Sequence record: OQ067375.1
Reading direction: 5' to 3' (one strand)
Length of the DNA: 64,000 nucleotides
Origin: Escherichia phage a48
Part shown: piece by piece, positions 11,414-21,882 of the stretch
Numbering within the stretch: the first letter of the stretch is position 1
Layout: each line of letters opens with the position of its first letter
Made by a program: the position numbers and the translations under genes
The notes under the pieces: model-generated
Told to the model about the DNA's origin: nothing
The model's database searches: none
The model's input: the letters and a program-made list of their open reading frames with translations, nothing else

Positions 11414-11626
11414 CTATTCCTTACTAAGAGCAGCATTCAGCTTGTTAGTAATTTTATCCAGGCGCTCATTGAACTCACTGGAAGATAAGCCCTTTTCTGG
11501 AGAAATTAAACTAATCACGAAAAATATAGCAATAAAAGGAATAAGGAAAATAGCTCCAACTGCCATAAACAGAAAGAATGTTACAGTTGTAAGAAAATCA
11601 GCTAAACCTTTACGAAATTTATACAT
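11414..11626 (-). CDS. small membrane protein
   Basis: 70 aa with a central hydrophobic helix (FFLFMAVGAIFLIPFIAIFFVISLI). Confidence 0.5.
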   Translation of the reverse strand: MYKFRKGLADFLTTVTFFLFMAVGAIFLIPFIAIFFVISLISPEKGLSSSEFNERLDKITNKLNAALSKE

Positions 11627-11744
11627 TTACATTTACCTTTAATTGATTAACCAAGCATTGATAAGCACTAAACTATATTGGGAATAAAATTCTGGACCAA
11701 AATGAAAAATCATATCATTTATAGTATCCATAATGTAATTCAAT

Positions 11745-12215
11745 TTAATCATGTTTCCACACCCCATCGGTATTTGACCAAAGTCGCTGATTATCTGATC
11801 CTCGCCACAGCTTTTTAGTCGGAAGATTTTTCTCATACTTCCCATCAATAATAACATCAACATATTTAAGCATTTCTAGTTGTTTAATATCTTCAAACTT
11901 ATATCCTGTCCACAACCAAATGCTTTTATTGGGATAAAGATTTTTAATAGTTTGAACAATGCAATGAATAACATCTCGATTGTCAGGATAGAGAGGGTCT
12001 CCTCCAGTTATAGTCAATCCTTCTATATAATCATTATTCAAACATTCAATTAATTGTTCTAGTGTTTCACCAGTGAATGGAATACCATTTCTAGCATTCC
12101 ATGTTGATTTATTATAACACCCTTCACATTTATGCAAACAACCTGTAACGAAAAGAACGACCCTGCAACCAGGGCCATTAACAAAATCGCAAGGATAAAA
12201 TCTATCATAATTCAT
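11745..12215 (-). CDS. nrdG: anaerobic ribonucleotide reductase activating protein (radical SAM)
   Basis: 156 aa; Cys cluster CLHKCEGCYN; overlaps the nrdD stop by 4 nt. Confidence 0.88.
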   Translation of the reverse strand: MNYDRFYPCDFVNGPGCRVVLFVTGCLHKCEGCYNKSTWNARNGIPFTGETLEQLIECLNNDYIEGLTITGGDPLYPDNRDVIHCIVQTIKNLYPNKSIWLWTGYKFEDIKQLEMLKYVDVIIDGKYEKNLPTKKLWRGSDNQRLWSNTDGVWKHD

Positions 12216-14029
12216 TGGTGTTTAACCCTATGCATGATTTCTTTATTTTTACCGAGATTAAATCCGCGTTCGTTCGGATTTCCCAAATAACCACATGTTC
12301 TTCTTATGGTATTCATCTTTTTAGGATCAGTTTCTCCACAAATAGAACAAACAAATCCGTTTTCAGTAGGAGTCATTTCATGAGTACTTCCGCATGTAAA
12401 ACATTTATCTACTGGCATGTTAACGCCAAAATAATCTAAATGTTGTGCAGCATAATCCCATACGGCCTCAAGACCTTTTAAGTTATTTTTCATATCAGGA
12501 AGTTCAACATAAGAAATGTGACCACCTGTCGCAATGAAATGATATGGTGCTTCGCGGGAAATCTTTTCAAACGGAGTAATATTTTCTTCTACTGAAACAT
12601 GGAAACTGTTAGTGTACCAACCTTTATCGGTAACATCTTTTACACTTCCATATTTTTCTGTATCGAGTTTACAGAAGCGATAACAAAGGTTTTCAGCAGG
12701 AGTAGAATATAAACTAAAAGCGAATCCGGTTCTTTCAGTCCACTGTTTAAGATGAGCATTCATTTTAGTTAAAATTTCTCGTCCAATATCACGACCGACA
12801 AGAATATTCAATTCGTGAATACCAATGTATCCCAAAGACACTGAACTTCTACCGTTTTTAAATAACTCAATTATGTCGTCATCAGGTTTAAGACGAACCC
12901 CGAATGCACCTTCTTGGTAAAGAATAGGAGCAACAGTAGCTTTAACTCCTTTTAAGGAACTAATTCTACACATCAAAGCTTCAAAACACAAATCCATTCG
13001 TTCATTGAATAATTCAACAAATTTCTGTTCATTGAACTGTGTTCCAATATAAGAATCTAACGCGATGCGAGGAAGATTCAGTGTTACAACACCAAGATTA
13101 TTACGTCCATCAAGAATTTCATTACCAGTCGAATCTTTCCATACGCTCAAGAAACTACGGCAACCCATTGGAGAAACAGGAACAGATGAACCAGTGATAG
13201 CTTTATTGTTCTTAGCTGAAATAATATCAGGATACATCCTTTTGCTTGCACACTCTAGAGCAAGCTGCTTAATATCATAGTTCGGATCGTCTTTATAAAG
13301 ATTAACACCTTCTTCAACGAACATAACAAGCTTAGGGAAAATAGGAGTTATCCCATCACGACCAAGACCTTTAATACGATTTTTCAGAATTGCTTTCTGA
13401 ATCATTCGTTCAGTCCAGTCAGTTCCCGTACCAAATGTAATTGTTACAAAAGGCGTTTGTCCGTTTGAACTAAAGAGAGTATTTACTTCATATTCATAAG
13501 CTTGGAATGCATCGTATACGTCTTTTTCTGTTTTAGATTGAGCATAATTTAACGCATCAGCGATTTGCCATTTTTCTGCATCCTCAATATGTTTTGCATA
13601 GGTGCGTTTAACATAAGGAGAAAGTACTTTATCTACATTAGCAAAAGTCGTTCCGCCGTATTGGTGAGAAGCAACCTGTGCAGTAATTTGTGCCATAATT
13701 GCAGTAGCAACGCCAATTGATTTAGGAGTTTCAATCTGCGCATTACCTAGCTTAAATCCGTTCTCAAGCATTCCTTTTAAATCTACTAAACAGCAATTAG
13801 TAAATGGAAGAGCAGGGGAATAATCAATATCGTGGAAATGGATAATTCCGCTTTCATGCGCTTTCATAATAAAAGACGGGACCATATTTTTGGCAATGTG
13901 TTTAGACACAATACCAGCCATAAGGTCCCGTTGAGTTGGAAAAACACGAGAATCTTTATTAGCATTCTCGTTTAAAAGGTCTTTATTAGTTTTATGAATC
14001 AATCCTTCAATTTCTTTTTCAATTGTCAT
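12212..14029 (-). CDS. nrdD: anaerobic ribonucleoside-triphosphate reductase (glycyl radical enzyme), uninterrupted
   Basis: 605 aa continuous ORF; C-terminal Cys cluster and glycyl-radical region; no intron interruption. Confidence 0.92.
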   Translation of the reverse strand: MTIEKEIEGLIHKTNKDLLNENANKDSRVFPTQRDLMAGIVSKHIAKNMVPSFIMKAHESGIIHFHDIDYSPALPFTNCCLVDLKGMLENGFKLGNAQIETPKSIGVATAIMAQITAQVASHQYGGTTFANVDKVLSPYVKRTYAKHIEDAEKWQIADALNYAQSKTEKDVYDAFQAYEYEVNTLFSSNGQTPFVTITFGTGTDWTERMIQKAILKNRIKGLGRDGITPIFPKLVMFVEEGVNLYKDDPNYDIKQLALECASKRMYPDIISAKNNKAITGSSVPVSPMGCRSFLSVWKDSTGNEILDGRNNLGVVTLNLPRIALDSYIGTQFNEQKFVELFNERMDLCFEALMCRISSLKGVKATVAPILYQEGAFGVRLKPDDDIIELFKNGRSSVSLGYIGIHELNILVGRDIGREILTKMNAHLKQWTERTGFAFSLYSTPAENLCYRFCKLDTEKYGSVKDVTDKGWYTNSFHVSVEENITPFEKISREAPYHFIATGGHISYVELPDMKNNLKGLEAVWDYAAQHLDYFGVNMPVDKCFTCGSTHEMTPTENGFVCSICGETDPKKMNTIRRTCGYLGNPNERGFNLGKNKEIMHRVKHQ

Positions 14030-15361: not shown

Positions 15362-15682
15362 TTATAGCGTAATCCATTCTCGTACTGTCTGAGTTACTAC
15401 ACGTTCACGGGGCTCGACTAGTTCAACAGTCGGAACTGCATAATACCAGTCAGAATGATAAGAACCTGAGCGAGATTCATTTACAGCCACATGTACATTA
15501 TGTTTTGGACTAAAATAAACACACTGACGATATTGGCATTTACCATCTTGCACCCAGTCTTCTATTTCGACAGGTTTAAGATAATCGGAAAAATCGAAAT
15601 CATAGTTTTCCGAAAATGCATCATGGTCTTCAATGATTTCGCTCAGAACTGCATCAACATCTAATTTATTTTCAATAGTCAT
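15362..15682 (-). CDS. hypothetical protein (49.x)
   Basis: 106 aa acidic ORF. Confidence 0.5.
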   Translation of the reverse strand: MTIENKLDVDAVLSEIIEDHDAFSENYDFDFSDYLKPVEIEDWVQDGKCQYRQCVYFSPKHNVHVAVNESRSGSYHSDWYYAVPTVELVEPRERVVTQTVREWITL

Positions 15683-16342: not shown

Positions 16343-16585
16343 TTATTCCTTAATTCCTAGTACTTGTTTAAAAGTCTCGTCGTAATCAAGACTTTGGCCC
16401 GTTTGTTCTTTATGTTTGTATATAATATCACTTACTTCTGATAGCATATTTTTATATGAACGAGTTAAAGCAGATTTAAGCACGCTGTATCTATCAGGAA
16501 ATTTACCATGTTCATTATAATAAGCTATTGCTAATTCACGGACTGCCTTTTCAGCAGCCTCCATATATTCTTTACGCTTGGTCAT
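16343..16585 (-). CDS. hypothetical protein (nrdC.x)
   Basis: Trimmed to the ATG at 16583-16585 ([13 protein letters not shown]...); the longer track ORF overlaps the upstream gene. Confidence 0.4.
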
Positions 16586-16886
16586 TTTCTTCTCGGTCAA
16601 ATCGGTGTTTACAATGACGACATTTATAACGAAGATTACTAGTCTGCCAATGGACCAATTGCACCTGTTCAGTTCCACATTCAGGGCAATTAGGAACGTT
16701 TTTAGAAGCCCTTTCACGACGTTCAACCATGACCATTACAGAATCCCAATTAACAGGAGGGCTATAATCATCACAACCATGAATCTTTCCACGCATTTCC
16801 AGATCGTCTTCTTCACCAGCCATAATAATTTTAATTACACTAGAATTACTTGAAGCTGCAATGTCTTCTAATAGACGATTTTTCAT
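16572..16886 (-). CDS. zinc-ribbon-like small protein
   Basis: 104 aa; CPECG...CRHCKH four-Cys arrangement. Confidence 0.5.
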
Positions 16887-17809
16887 TTCAATACCTCAAT
16901 AGCATTGCGTAAACCATTTGCTTTGGCGGTTAAAGCCTTAAGAACTTTAGTATGCTCTTCAATTTGTTTTTCAACTTCAATCAAACGAGCATTGAGATAT
17001 TCGCGTTCTTCTTTCATAGTATCATTCCCATGATTGGATTTTGGTGTAGGTTTAAATTCACTAGGGTCCTTTAATTTAATAACAAATTTAGTTTCAAACA
17101 GCGAAAGACCATAATTCGTATTATCATCAAAGGATTTGACTACATCCATATCAGATAATAACACGCGTAAATTATAAGCCAAAGAACTAATAGTTTCATT
17201 GTGTTTATTAGCTTCGCGTGGTTTCATATACGGAAGATTTTTATATATCTCGTGCGGAGCACAAATGATAATTGACAATTCAAATTGCCCATTCTGGGAC
17301 GATGGAGTGAATTTAGCCGTAACCCAGTCTTTTACATTCACATTAATAGTACGGTTATCACCATGACAAAACAGTCTACGAGAATGCTTAAAAAGCATAT
17401 TCACGTTATTATTGAATTCGTGTGAAAATTCACTAGCAAATTTTTCTTTACTATCTTTAGAAAACCATTCTTCTAAATAAGTTCTTTTCACGTCGTTAAT
17501 AATATTAAATGTAACAACACTAGCATTTGATACATTAGTCTCAATGTAGCTTGGATACATAAATTTTTTAACATTATTAACAGCTATCACAGAAGATAGT
17601 AATCGGGAACGTTTGAACCACTCGAGCAAAGAACCAAGAGAATGTGAATACGCATTTTGTGTATCTTTACAAATATGGTTTTCCCATCCAATATAGTCTA
17701 AAAAATCACGAAGAATATTATTGATTACTGCTCTGTGTCCTATCTGATAATTACGATGTTTAGTAATAAGACTGTCAAAATAATCAATATAATGTTTACG
17801 AGTTTTCAT
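16883..17809 (-). CDS. paralog family member A (C-terminal coiled coil)
   Basis: 308 aa; N-terminus MKTRK...; C-terminal heptad-rich tail; similar to the three neighbouring ORFs. Confidence 0.6.
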   Translation of the reverse strand: MKTRKHYIDYFDSLITKHRNYQIGHRAVINNILRDFLDYIGWENHICKDTQNAYSHSLGSLLEWFKRSRLLSSVIAVNNVKKFMYPSYIETNVSNASVVTFNIINDVKRTYLEEWFSKDSKEKFASEFSHEFNNNVNMLFKHSRRLFCHGDNRTINVNVKDWVTAKFTPSSQNGQFELSIIICAPHEIYKNLPYMKPREANKHNETISSLAYNLRVLLSDMDVVKSFDDNTNYGLSLFETKFVIKLKDPSEFKPTPKSNHGNDTMKEEREYLNARLIEVEKQIEEHTKVLKALTAKANGLRNAIEVLK

Positions 17810-17861
17810 GTTCTTCTCACTTGGTTAATGATTTATACTCCGAGCCATCCTTGGCTTTAAA

Positions 17862-18859
17862 TTACTTAATTAACTGTAAAGCTTGTTCCAGACGATCAAG
17901 ACGATTAACAGATTCTTCCCAAATCCTTTTAGCCTGCTCATATTCTTTCTGCGCTTTATTAGAAATTTCTAGAACTTCTTTATAAGCTTTTTCTAGTGCA
18001 ATAACTTCTGGACGAATTTCTATCGGTTCAGGTGAATCATCAAGACATTCCATTAGTTCCTCAAGGGTAGTTTCTTCTTTAGGAGTATTCACAATTTCAT
18101 CACATTTTTGTTGGTAAATTTCTTTATCAGTAGGTGAATAAGCACATTTCACTTCACGAAGGCTAATTACGAGTTTATATCCTTCCCAACCGCATATATT
18201 CTTAAAAGGATATGTATGAATATTTTCTACTGTTTCCATACAAAGTAATGCGGTCTCTAATTGACGAGTTATAGTGCTAGCAATTGAGAAAAATTTATTA
18301 ATATTCTTTTGGTTAGTTTCTGGTGTAAAAAATCTGTAATTAATAAAAATAGCTACTTTGTTTTTATCAAGCTCATATTCTTCTGCTATAATCATATCAT
18401 CAGCTAAGGGATGAATTGTACGATAATCACCATAACATAATTTAGAAGCTGATTTTAGAATTTGCTTCGTAAAACTCCTAAATTCACTAACCCAACGACG
18501 AGTAAAAATATTCTCAGGGTCTTCTTTAGTATTAAGATGATAAGTATTAACATCACCGAACCAATTGTATCCTACTACATCTTTAGTTCGTTTAATTTCT
18601 TTCCCAAATTTACCAAGAATATCTTGATTAACTAAATATGAAAGAAGACGAGACCCTTTAAAGGTTTTCTTAATATCATCTTTATCCGTGCGGCTAGAAA
18701 TTTCATGAGCTTCATGAATAAATTTACTGGAAGAAACAATACTTACATCAATATTATTGAGCCATTGATAATAGAAATAACATCGTTCTGACTAGACACA
18801 GGTTTAACTTTATCATCAATAACGCTATTGAATGATTTGATATATTCGTTACGAGTCAT
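17862..18859 (-). pseudogene. paralog family member B, interrupted by a frameshift
   Basis: ATG 18857-18859 opens a 38-codon frame ending at 18743-18745; a second frame is open 17862-18791 but has no ATG until 18395; joining them requires a -1 shift within 18746-18791. Confidence 0.5.
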
Positions 18860-18887
18860 AATAATCTCCTCAGTAGAAAGTAAGAAC

Positions 18888-18917
18888 ATTATACCACATC
18901 CTTGTGGCAAAGTAAAC
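18888..18917 (-). promoter_or_regulatory. early sigma70-type promoter (-35 GTTTACT, -10 TATAAT)
   Basis: 17-bp spacer contains the palindrome CCACAAGGATGTGG; upstream of the ATG at 18859. Confidence 0.6.
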
Positions 18918-19930
18918 TAGTTCAGTGCATTGTTCAGTTTAGAACGTTGCTTTATCAGATTTTGAACCCTTGACTGAGCTTGTTCTAACGCCTTTTCAGC
19001 TTCTAGCACTTCATTGGTCGCTTTAACGAGTTCATCATCTACTGCCTTAAGAGACTTCTCAATCGCGTCAGCGTGCCATTTTTCAACAGGTTTAAGACTC
19101 GGATTTTCAATAGGAAGAAAATTCACTTTATTGAATTTCCATGCATCTTTATTACCTGAACTATACATCCAAAATTTAGGATCGTTTGATGAGTAATTAG
19201 ATGAATTTAAGGTATCTTGCACTTCTTGCTTTTTCTCTTGCGGGACTTCGTCCTTTCTCAAAAAATCGTATTTAAATGAAACGATCATATCAAGTTCATA
19301 TGTTGTTGTATGTTCCCAATTTCGCTCAAAACGAGGTAAAATCTTAGATTGAACAGCAGCAACAACATCCATATACTTAAATGCTTCTGTCAACTGTGAT
19401 TTAAGGCATTCGCAAATTGAAAGAGAATTTTTTGTATTAGGTTTAAAGCTAATTCGTGCAGTTCTATTATTTTCTTTTAACGGTCTTACTTCCATCTGAA
19501 GAGTATAACCATCAAATTTCAGATTCTTTAAGTTAATATCAGAGCCTTTTAATCGACTAGCAGTAGACAAAATTTGCTTTAATTGTTTACGGAACAGAGC
19601 AATAAATCTCCATTCAAGACGATAATGATTTGGATTAAAAAATCCAGTTGATAGATCAGTCTTACTTTGACCAACGCCTCGAACAAATAGAGGATTTTTA
19701 TAATCAATAGTTTTACAGAAATCGGTGAGCTGCTCGCGAGCAGTCATTTGTGTAATATACCCTGCTTTACTAAAATTACGCACCCATTCACTGCTATTCG
19801 TATACTTAAAGTGATGAATAACACGATTAACTTTATCAGGGTCTAAATTATTTTCACACAAAAATGTCATAACATCACGAGTATAACTGGCATTACGAAC
19901 CATATCTTCAATTTGAGAACGAGTTTTCAT
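18917..19930 (-). CDS. paralog family member C (C-terminal coiled coil)
   Basis: 337 aa; N-terminus MKTRSQIED...; C-terminal coiled coil. Confidence 0.6.
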   Translation of the reverse strand: MKTRSQIEDMVRNASYTRDVMTFLCENNLDPDKVNRVIHHFKYTNSSEWVRNFSKAGYITQMTAREQLTDFCKTIDYKNPLFVRGVGQSKTDLSTGFFNPNHYRLEWRFIALFRKQLKQILSTASRLKGSDINLKNLKFDGYTLQMEVRPLKENNRTARISFKPNTKNSLSICECLKSQLTEAFKYMDVVAAVQSKILPRFERNWEHTTTYELDMIVSFKYDFLRKDEVPQEKKQEVQDTLNSSNYSSNDPKFWMYSSGNKDAWKFNKVNFLPIENPSLKPVEKWHADAIEKSLKAVDDELVKATNEVLEAEKALEQAQSRVQNLIKQRSKLNNALN

Positions 19931-19938
19931 GGTGTTCC

Positions 19939-20847
19939 TTAAGATTTAAGTAAATCAACAATTTTAATTAATTTTTCACGTTCAGATTTAGCTTTACTAC
20001 TCAATCCAGATAGTCTGAAAATTTCATCGTCATATTGTTGAATAGAAATATTCAGCTCTTCAATTTGCTTATTAAAATAATCAATTTGTTCAGAATGTTT
20101 TTCGTTACTACGAACTGGTGCAGGTTTTGTAGGCAATTTAGTTGAACTGGATTCATCCGGGCGATAAATTAAAATACAATTTGAACCAATAGGGCATTTT
20201 GCACCAGACACATATTCTAATGTTCCGGCTTCTTTTAAAACTTCAAAAGCTAAACAGAGATGATGACCCATATTGGCATAATCTGTAGAGTGAGCTCTGA
20301 TATAATAATCATCTCCACGAGTACTAAATTTAAAACATTTAAGGTCTTCTGTATTATTGGTCTTAAAAATCATTTGTTTATCTAGACCTTTAGCTAATCG
20401 AGCACCTAATGCTAATAATCGTCGTTGATTTTCCCACAAATCTGCGATCATTTGGTCAAATGATAATTTCGGCATTAGTCGACCATAAAGGTCATATCCT
20501 TTATTATAATTGCGAAGAATTTCACTCGCGTTAATGCGAGACAACGCTCCAATTTTATTAAGGGCTTTCATGATGCGATTAGATAAAAGCATTCCAGACC
20601 CGTTTGTTCGTTGTAAATGTTTTTCTAATCCAAATCCAATATCAACTTTAAACTTATCTAAAATTTCGGCGTGAACATCTTTATCGATAACATTTAAATT
20701 TAGTACTGGGTTAAATTTATGAAAAAATTTATCTGACTCGTCGCGTTGAAGTACAGTCCATTCATTTGATTTTTTATTAACTAAAGATTTAATTACTGCA
20801 TTGACATTATTAATTGCTACTGACATATTTTCCTCACTCAATTTCAA
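19939..20847 (-). CDS. paralog family member D (C-terminal coiled coil)
   Basis: 302 aa; C-terminal coiled coil (IDYFNKQIEELNISIQQYDDEIFRL...). Confidence 0.55.
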   Translation of the reverse strand: MKLSEENMSVAINNVNAVIKSLVNKKSNEWTVLQRDESDKFFHKFNPVLNLNVIDKDVHAEILDKFKVDIGFGLEKHLQRTNGSGMLLSNRIMKALNKIGALSRINASEILRNYNKGYDLYGRLMPKLSFDQMIADLWENQRRLLALGARLAKGLDKQMIFKTNNTEDLKCFKFSTRGDDYYIRAHSTDYANMGHHLCLAFEVLKEAGTLEYVSGAKCPIGSNCILIYRPDESSSTKLPTKPAPVRSNEKHSEQIDYFNKQIEELNISIQQYDDEIFRLSGLSSKAKSEREKLIKIVDLLKS

Positions 20848-21296: not shown

Positions 21297-21824
21297 TTAT
21301 GCGAGTACCGTCTTTAACCGTTCTTCAAACTTCCGAAGAGTATTCTGGCGTTCAGCTCTTTGCTTTTTGTAAGTTTCAATACGCTCTGAAATGAGAGTGT
21401 ATCGTTCATTTACTGATTCTTTCATAAAATCAGGAATTTCACGAGAAGCTTTAATCTCATCAAATTTATCAATAACAGCTTGCTCTTCAGCAATTAAGTT
21501 ATCATACATTAAAATATCTTTCTTGATAAACTCAATATCTTCTTGAGTTACACGAGATAATTTAGATGCTTTATCCTTTTTGTACTGTTCGTTAGTATCA
21601 CGAGACCAGTGTAATGTACGATTTTTATTCGTATTCTTGTAAATTTCTACAATACCGATCTCATCGATAATAACGATCCAATTCCAACGGGATTTGTAAA
21701 TTTGTCCTCCGTCAACTGTGATTTCACCTCCGATTGAGATGTCATTAAAGAACTTACTTTGTGCTTCAGATTTAAATTTACCATCGTTGTAATTTACCAA
21801 GTTGAAAATATCTTTAGCGTTCAT
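21297..21824 (-). CDS. hypothetical protein
   Basis: 175 aa ORF directly downstream of an early-type promoter. Confidence 0.55.
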   Translation of the reverse strand: MNAKDIFNLVNYNDGKFKSEAQSKFFNDISIGGEITVDGGQIYKSRWNWIVIIDEIGIVEIYKNTNKNRTLHWSRDTNEQYKKDKASKLSRVTQEDIEFIKKDILMYDNLIAEEQAVIDKFDEIKASREIPDFMKESVNERYTLISERIETYKKQRAERQNTLRKFEERLKTVLA

Positions 21825-21852: not shown

Positions 21853-21882
21853 ATAGTACCACAGAGGAACAGTCTTGTAAAC
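21853..21882 (-). promoter_or_regulatory. early sigma70-type promoter (-35 GTTTACA, -10 TACTAT)
   Basis: Shares the conserved GTGGTACTATACAACTATC core with four other sites; upstream of the ORF starting at 21824. Confidence 0.6.

Follow-up and report, generated by a model that had tools for sequence, protein, structure and literature searches.

Phage T4 neutralizes the Escherichia coli defense Dsr1, a SIR2 NADase, with its protein NrdC.5 (Srikant et al., eLife 2022, PMC9391042). A T4 deletion mutant failed to plate on ECOR17, and deletion of dsr1 in ECOR17 restored plating (PMC9391042). Plasmid-borne dsr1 protected MG1655 against the T4 mutant, and T4 nrdC.5 supplied in trans restored infection (PMC9391042). 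According to a 2026 preprint (PMC12803255), E. coli Dsr1 senses a phage major capsid protein, that of phage ZL19, through its tetratricopeptide repeat (TPR) sensor and is thereby triggered. Pathways that restore nicotinamide adenine dinucleotide (NAD+), termed NARP, also counter Dsr1. Here we analyzed a stretch of 64,000 nucleotides (nt) from Escherichia phage a48 (record OQ067375.1), hereafter the window, which carries four consecutive minus-strand genes, nrdC.3 to nrdC.6, among them the ortholog of T4 nrdC.5. The analysis supports that these four genes, including the outlier nrdC.6, are genuine, though highly diverged, descendants of a single ancestor.

The original prediction, made from the letters of the window, had described a tandem array of four paralogous genes with variable heads and heptad-rich tails, and the four open reading frames (ORFs) are present where it had placed them. 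They were identified, from the annotations of T4T and RB32, as orthologs of T4/RB32 nrdC.3, nrdC.4, nrdC.5 and nrdC.6. The 4.8 kilobases (kb) around the array are 94–95% identical to RB32, RB33, T4 and several hundred other Tequatrovirus genomes and, judged by this sequence, the source phage is a T4-like Tequatrovirus. The array contains:

16883–17809, minus strand: nrdC.3, 308 amino acids (aa), intact, of the NrdC.3/NrdC.4 subfamily; full-length match to phrog_1435 with an expectation value (E) of 2e-101.
17862–18858, minus strand: nrdC.4, ATG at 18858, disrupted here; 333 aa if repaired.
~18762–18769, minus strand: 4-nt deletion in nrdC.4, ATCAATCAATGG to ATCAATGG, slippage in a 4-nt tandem repeat.
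18917–19930, minus strand: nrdC.5, 337 aa; Pfam DUF7235 (PF23882) at E = 8e-126, phrog_2351 at E = 4e-165.
19939–20826, minus strand: nrdC.6, 295 aa from its ATG, the most diverged member; phrog_2257 at E = 1e-149.

The nrdC.5 gene of the window is orthologous to that of T4, with 94.6% amino-acid identity, a full-length DUF7235 match (420 bits on PF23882 against a curated cut-off of 30) and the same position, flanked by nrdC.6 and nrdC.4, as in T4, RB32 and RB3. For this gene, the earlier statement that no function was assignable is outdated, as its assignment is anti-Dsr1 (PMC9391042). The nrdC.3 product is 100% identical to the RB33 protein. The ATG of nrdC.6 at 20826 is the annotated T4/RB32 start and has a GAGG 7 nt upstream; the 302 aa first given for this protein are reached only from an upstream TTG (20847), compared with 295 aa from the T4/RB32 ATG. 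The N-termini were confirmed as MKTR in nrdC.3, MTR in nrdC.4 and MKTR in nrdC.5, and T3 and R4 do not vary across the joint alignment. In architecture, nrdC.3, nrdC.4 and nrdC.6 resemble T4 NrdC.5 as its diverged paralogs, unlike which they fall into other Pfam and PHROG families and share less than 25% identity with it.

Pairwise BLASTP connected nrdC.3 with nrdC.4 (8e-6) and nrdC.4 with nrdC.5 (2e-3) and gave no match for nrdC.6 among the four. As pairwise BLASTP was insufficient, we used profiles, with family alignments built from database relatives and neighboring genes of related loci. A word-indexed protein search with nrdC.5 returned only relatives of at least 81% identity, and distant nrdC.5-like genes were taken from neighboring loci. 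The nrdC.4 profile matched nrdC.3 at 1e-14 to 1e-17 (hmmsearch), and repaired nrdC.4 matched phrog_1435 end to end (E = 2e-163). With hhalign, nrdC.3 and nrdC.4 aligned at 98% (E = 7e-14) and nrdC.4 and nrdC.5 at 77% (E = 2e-5) over 227 collinear columns; direct comparison with nrdC.6 gave P = 1e-3 for nrdC.4 and P = 0.14 for nrdC.5, and reversed-target controls of the full-length runs gave P of at least 0.07. When the tails were removed, the heads still aligned (nrdC.3–nrdC.4 5e-14, nrdC.4–nrdC.5 8e-5, nrdC.4–nrdC.6 7e-4; reversed-target controls at least 0.29). The N-terminal domains are hence similar beyond composition, rather than lacking significant similarity as they would if the proposed paralogy were wrong.

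The link to nrdC.6 was strengthened by metagenomic intermediates. The nrdC.6 profile, run against 1.84 billion representative proteins, matched only 14, the distant ones being P0234, P0235 and P0237 (E 6e-7 to 7e-5). These three proteins scored 20–34 bits on the nrdC.5 profile and, almost end to end, 17–43 bits on a joint nrdC.3/4/5 profile. Taken as a small family, they matched nrdC.6 (98.9%, 3e-17), nrdC.5 (97.7%, 1.4e-12) and nrdC.4 (78.5%, 1.7e-5). Combined with nrdC.6, they matched the joint nrdC.3/4/5 profile (97.3%, 1.9e-11) and also the heads of nrdC.4 (1.3e-6) and nrdC.5 (1.6e-5), with reversed controls of at least 0.2. The weakest direct pairs, nrdC.3–nrdC.6 and nrdC.5–nrdC.6, are linked transitively only. 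Alignment of the four products thus supports a homologous globular part in all subfamilies, nrdC.6 requiring profile–profile comparison, intermediates and structure. The short patches that had first suggested a relationship, SRLLS and KFASEF../RRWVSEFRSF, fall in homologous columns of the profile alignments.

As a control we used the neighboring NrdC.8, which has a similar heptad tail. It gave hhalign P of at least 0.06 against every family and was no better than its own reversed control against two of seven profiles; coiled-coil composition is therefore not the source of the homology signal. NrdC.8 had also been considered as a fifth family member for its heptad tail and anti-Druantia activity and was rejected for want of a profile signal.

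Existing family definitions divide the array. PHROGs already place nrdC.3 and nrdC.4 in one family, with nrdC.5 and nrdC.6 in separate ones. PF23882 matched nrdC.3 only at E = 0.15, on the tail, and did not match nrdC.4 or nrdC.6. Precomputed PF26897 matches exist for all nrdC.4 relatives and for P0162, an nrdC.5–nrdC.3 chimera, and precomputed PF26899 (Phage_T4_Y05B) matches for all 105 nrdC.6 relatives and for the intermediate P0234. No Pfam or NCBIfam thioredoxin-fold (thioredoxin/glutaredoxin) match was found for any of the four. Many GenBank records call nrdC.3–nrdC.8 "thioredoxin", a label apparently taken from the gene name nrdC.x; the T6 RefSeq record calls NrdC.5 a "tail sheath stabilizer and completion protein", which looks like a similar carry-over error. 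The widespread thioredoxin annotation of nrdC.3–6 is herewith corrected.

We compared AlphaFold models of NrdC.5 and NrdC.6 by element order and motif position. The NrdC.6 model was computed from an nrdC.6-only alignment and had a predicted local distance difference test score (pLDDT) of 79.7. Both models run through a helix pair, a second helix pair, a β-hairpin, a long helix, a β-hairpin and a low-confidence linker, and end in a long helix (NrdC.5) or a helical hairpin (NrdC.6). Conserved motifs of a 130-sequence superfamily alignment lie on equivalent helices in both. In Foldseek searches of BFVD, both matched uncharacterized 300–370 aa proteins of other T4-like genera, including the same Tegunavirus protein A0A1V0DXL6 (2e-6 for NrdC.5, 7e-4 for NrdC.6), which is gp111 of fHe-Yen9-01 and adjoins a NrdC.10 homolog. 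A fold common to the array had been suggested as a check by structure prediction; for the two modeled proteins, element order and the shared Foldseek neighbor make one fold likely.

The proteins have a common layout, in which the N-terminal helical region is variable, the core is conserved, the linker is disordered and rich in indels, and the C-terminal amphipathic helix or hairpin is again conserved. The core consists of two helix pairs followed by a β-hairpin, a helix and a second β-hairpin, and carries the motifs F-x-K-x-[GR]-h-[LI]-[ST]...A...L..F and [IL]L..[AG][AS][RK]L..G[DN]. The tails are:

16886–17023, minus strand: nrdC.3 tail, residues 263–308, helical and heptad-like, ending LRNAIEVLK; heptad z = 2.6.
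17865–18014, minus strand: nrdC.4 tail, last 50 residues, helical, ending LEQALQLIK; weaker heptad pattern.
18920–19081, minus strand: nrdC.5 tail, residues 284–337; AlphaFold helix 284–336 at pLDDT 83–92; heptad z = 3.8.
19942–20103, minus strand: nrdC.6 tail, residues 242–295, a helical hairpin ending LLKS; heptad z = 3.1.

Heptad-rich tails had been proposed for all four; those of nrdC.3, nrdC.5 and nrdC.6 exceeded shuffled sequences (z 2.6–3.8), that of nrdC.4 did not clearly do so. The predicted C-terminal helix of NrdC.5 spans 53 residues, and the nrdC.6 tail has an invariant DDEIFRL turn motif. All tails end in a common motif, L..A[IL]..L[KN]. Among the 88 ORFs of at least 80 aa in the window, a loose form of this pattern occurred only in nrdC.3, nrdC.4 and nrdC.6; it missed nrdC.5, which in this window ends three residues before the T4 protein does. 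In every subfamily conservation is higher in the tail than in the head (nrdC.3 0.85 versus 0.73, nrdC.4 0.72 versus 0.56); in nrdC.3 and nrdC.5 it is lowest in the linker.

The family was found in T4-like phages only, and tblastn detected 653 phage records for nrdC.3, 553 for nrdC.4, 602 for nrdC.5 and 741 for nrdC.6. Copy number varies: distant relatives have a single member, Mosigvirus and JS98/VR-type phages have three, and Tequatrovirus has four. The single members occur in two contigs of distant T4-like phages from metagenomes, where they occupy the syntenic position, flanked by RlaP/NrdC.11 and nrdC/pin/endonuclease VII; neighbors of 256–259 aa in distant loci were tested as extra members and rejected. 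Mosigvirus PhAPEC2 carries nrdC.6-like, nrdC.5-like and nrdC.3-like genes, JS98/VR-type phages nrdC.6, nrdC.5-like and nrdC.4-like genes. ACG-C40 has kept only nrdC.6 with an out-of-frame remnant of the nrdC.5 start and nrdC.3 tail, and P0162 is a natural in-frame chimera of nrdC.5 (N-terminal) and nrdC.3 (C-terminal) with junction microhomology FNKVN/FNNNVN. Rearrangements of the array were taken from P0162, locus L005 (5302–5713), P0001 and the records Manna and Pinarejo. Further variants include an 82-aa internal tandem duplication in nrdC.6 of Sf25 and Sf22, and phages that keep only the tail of nrdC.4 or nrdC.6. In Tegunavirus fHe-Yen9-01 (locus L019), an nrdC.6-like gene (gp94, 11459–12337) and an nrdC.5-like gene (gp111, 18382–19323) are non-adjacent, lying ~6 kb apart with ~16 small genes between them.

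The array also varies in sequence. For nrdC.3 there are three allele classes (at least 90%, ~60% and ~55% identity), and local DNA identity drops to 61–67% inside genomes that are otherwise 94–99% identical. The ratio of nonsynonymous to synonymous substitution rates (dN/dS) was 0.12–0.34 for the four array genes, compared with 0–0.05 for nrdC and nrdC.8 and 0–0.14 for nrdC.10. The original description of the family as diversifying stands in so far as dN/dS is several times that of the neighbors and nrdC.3 has three allele classes; it goes too far in that dN/dS stays below 1. Tandem viral host-range and immune-evasion families, e.g., in poxvirus host-range amplification, undergo duplication, divergence and frequent gain, loss and fusion, as nrdC.3–6 do. 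Unlike in amplifications of the poxvirus type, the copies here, at less than 25% identity, appear to be ancient rather than recent.

In the window, nrdC.4 is broken: 37 codons form an N-terminal piece, and the C-terminal piece lies in another frame with its stop at 17862. Three-frame translation placed the loss of frame after codon 32, at ~18762–18769, with a stop at 18743–18745. Once the 4-nt deletion is repaired, the product has 333 aa as in T4, in agreement with the ~330 aa anticipated for the frameshifted member. The deletion was found in none of five aligned relatives (T4T, RB32, RB3 and two IMG/VR relatives; DNA alignment) and in none of the eight best of 493 matching phage records, each with 265 nt compared with the 261-nt query; the deleted version had no exact match in IMG/VR. 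It therefore reflects either a recent mutation private to this genome or an error of sequencing. In this genome, nrdC.4 would thus be inactivated or mis-sequenced, leaving three intact members only. The gene is also split in the phage T2 reference NC_054931.1, as is nrdC.6 (locus L020, 579–1412 and 2560–3499), and in IMG/VR contig 2974742932 (locus L006, 7950–8982), with the T2 and IMG/VR breaks at other places than in the window. These split genes may reflect real recurrent inactivation or sequencing errors, and given the latter possibility we did not use the T2 genes as evidence of recurrent loss.

What the family does is suggested by NrdC.5 and by the surrounding genes. T-even gp49.2 inhibits OLD, T-even NrdC.1 inhibits Septu, and Bas37_0203 inhibits Druantia III. 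By gene order and length in the Bas37 annotation table, Bas37_0203 is the NrdC.8 ortholog, a 528-nt gene right after the NrdC.7 ortholog. The corresponding genes of the window, together with nrdC.2, are:

15362–15682, minus strand: gp49.2, 106 aa, ortholog of the reported OLD inhibitor.
~16343–16585, minus strand: NrdC.1, 80 aa from the T4 start, ortholog of the reported Septu inhibitor.
16572–16886, minus strand: nrdC.2, 104 aa, with a C-terminal CxxC...CxxC zinc-ribbon signature.
21297–21824, minus strand: nrdC.8, 175 aa, heptad-like tail, ortholog of Bas37_0203.

As gp49.2, NrdC.1 and NrdC.8 are orthologs of reported defense inhibitors, we regard the stretch from gene 49.2 to nrdC.8 as a counter-defense island. 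Like the array proteins, these three are early, dispensable, small to medium in size and encoded in the same nrdC-region cluster. Each of the three neutralizes one defense system; they are unrelated in sequence to the nrdC.3–6 family, single-copy and not expanded. The zinc ribbon of nrdC.2 matched several Pfam zinc-ribbon families (E 1e-4 to 1e-2). A second nrdC.2 allele with only 57% identity occurs in relative L009, and longer 390-nt forms occur in Bas35, Bas37 and Bas38.

The explanation that we favor, with some reserve, is that nrdC.3–6 are tandem paralogs descended from a single gene and act as early, dispensable counter-defense factors, each for a different host immune protein. The ancestral gene would have occupied the T4-like slot between nrdC.11/RlaP and nrdC/pin. 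The head, that of NrdC.5 in the case of Dsr1, would bind the immune protein directly, in a stoichiometric manner and ahead of the late trigger, and the helical tail would oligomerize the inhibitor. Each of the siblings nrdC.3, nrdC.4 and nrdC.6 would be directed at a different host factor, and duplication, allele replacement, deletion and fusion of members would track a varying repertoire of host defenses. As the sibling NrdC.5 disarms Dsr1, nrdC.3, nrdC.4 and nrdC.6 are good candidates against other defenses. The anti-defense role put forward in the original prediction is thus borne out for NrdC.5 by the published rescue on dsr1+ cells, with gp49.2, NrdC.1 and NrdC.8 as context; we infer it for the other three.

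The closest functional parallel is DSAD1 of phage SPbeta, an inhibitor of DSR2 and, like NrdC.5, a phage protein blocking a SIR2 NADase defense. In published structures DSAD1 binds the sensor region and competes with the structural-protein trigger, and by analogy we propose this as a working model for NrdC.5 and Dsr1. Unlike DSAD1, NrdC.5 acts in another host range and on another target. The two are not detectably related in sequence (neither family profile matched a PDB chain up to E = 1), and neither sequence nor fold similarity places NrdC.5 with DSAD1.

Several points weigh against the favored explanation. Experimental support within the family comes from NrdC.5 only, and the published rescue shows neither direct binding nor a mechanism. 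HIDEN-SEQ passages, a small part of the tables, gave no conditional phenotype for nrdC.3, nrdC.4 or nrdC.6. The oligomeric state of the tails is presumed. Gene-wide dN/dS is below 1, i.e., evolution is faster and not demonstrably positive. The link of nrdC.6 rests on profile–profile scores, three metagenomic intermediates and predicted structures, and HMMER profile–sequence searches gave no connection to the others (E > 0.3). The NrdC.5 model, from a mixed nrdC.5/nrdC.4/nrdC.3 alignment, is moderate (pLDDT 68). No solved structure in PDB resembles the globular part (again neither family profile matched a chain up to E = 1), and Pfam and NCBIfam contain no functional domain for the four genes.

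A general host-takeover or physiological role, e.g., in nucleotide or NAD metabolism or nucleoid handling, with an indirect NrdC.5 rescue against Dsr1, seems unlikely to us. It would agree with purifying selection across the genes, with the fixed position of the family across many T4-like genera and with the literature since Srikant et al. (2022), in which we found no mechanism for NrdC.5. Against it stand the strongly varying copy number and alleles among close relatives, the lack of any detected enzymatic domain or motif, the surrounding genes with their specific inhibitors of single defense systems and the full dispensability in laboratory hosts of all four genes, which T4 transposon mapping classed as non-essential.

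There is likewise a small chance that the family is a battery of early blockers of sensors (e.g., Dsr1- or Avs7-like TPR proteins) for late structural proteins, each head occupying a different sensor ahead of its capsid or tail trigger. The β-hairpin/helix/β-hairpin core might then be a non-activating mimic of a virion protein. In Foldseek, this core of the moderate-confidence NrdC.5 model had many weak matches, to be taken as a lead only, to tail-completion, tail-terminator and head–tail connector proteins (E 5e-3 to 3e-2, target-normalized template modeling (TM) score mostly 0.3–0.5). If this were true, the binding partners of nrdC.3, nrdC.4 and nrdC.6 would offer a direct route to unknown E. 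coli sensors.

It is rather improbable that the four proteins are subunits of one hetero-oligomer, joined by their similar C-terminal helices and acting together on one target. The shared tail ending, the tails being the best-conserved part of each subfamily, and the adjacency of the genes, with all four present in several hundred Tequatrovirus records, would fit such an assembly. Losses, however, have occurred independently (Mosigvirus lacks nrdC.4, JS98/VR-type phages lack nrdC.3, ACG-C40 has nrdC.6 only), distant relatives have one copy and nrdC.4 is broken in the window. Moreover, nrdC.5 alone in trans gave rescue on dsr1+ cells, although the other paralogs were perhaps still present in that phage.

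Finally, that only nrdC.3, nrdC.4 and nrdC.5 are paralogs and an unrelated nrdC.6 converged on a similar size and helical tail is very improbable, since the silence of BLASTP and HMMER, the weak direct hhalign scores and the separate Pfam and PHROG families of nrdC.6 are countered by intermediates matching both sides strongly and collinearly, heads included, by the same predicted topology with motifs on equivalent helices, by the common Foldseek neighbor and by the NrdC.8 control without signal.

The original prediction had set the array behind its own early promoter:

18888–18917, minus strand: T4 early-type promoter-like site, GTTTAC/TTTACT-17-TATAAT with TG, the best minus-strand match in the region.

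The site is real and invariant in five aligned relatives; it lies mid-array, between nrdC.5 and nrdC.4, and not ahead of the array. Owing to this position, it can serve only nrdC.4, nrdC.3 and genes downstream. The nrdC.6 and nrdC.5 genes come after nrdC.8 and nrdC.7 with gaps of 7–55 nt, none of them promoter-like, and are probably served by a similar site at 21881–21853. The array is hence not a single transcription unit with a promoter of its own in front. Immediately past the nrdC.5 stop codon, the promoter spacer (18892–18909, minus strand) holds the inverted repeat CCACA-AGGA-TGTGG. This repeat was also flagged as terminator-like in a scan and may weaken transcription that runs on from nrdC.5.

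Neither the genes nor the NrdC.5 phenotype is new, and the array is not a new kind of system. In the literature we found no statement that the four genes are paralogs, nothing under their Pfam names, and no documentation of the four-gene relationship, of the single-copy ancestor state or of the separation into conserved scaffold and variable parts. Apart from NAD+-restoring pathways, NrdC.5 is the only phage-encoded Dsr1 countermeasure that we found. Setting the conserved scaffold (two helix-pair motifs, β-α-β core and tail) against the variable parts points to where specificity likely resides. The natural copy-number series of one, three and four members, with chimeras and deletions, can be related to host range. 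The paralogs nrdC.3, nrdC.4 and nrdC.6 are nominated as candidates against other, possibly unknown, defenses, nrdC.3 alone with three allele classes.

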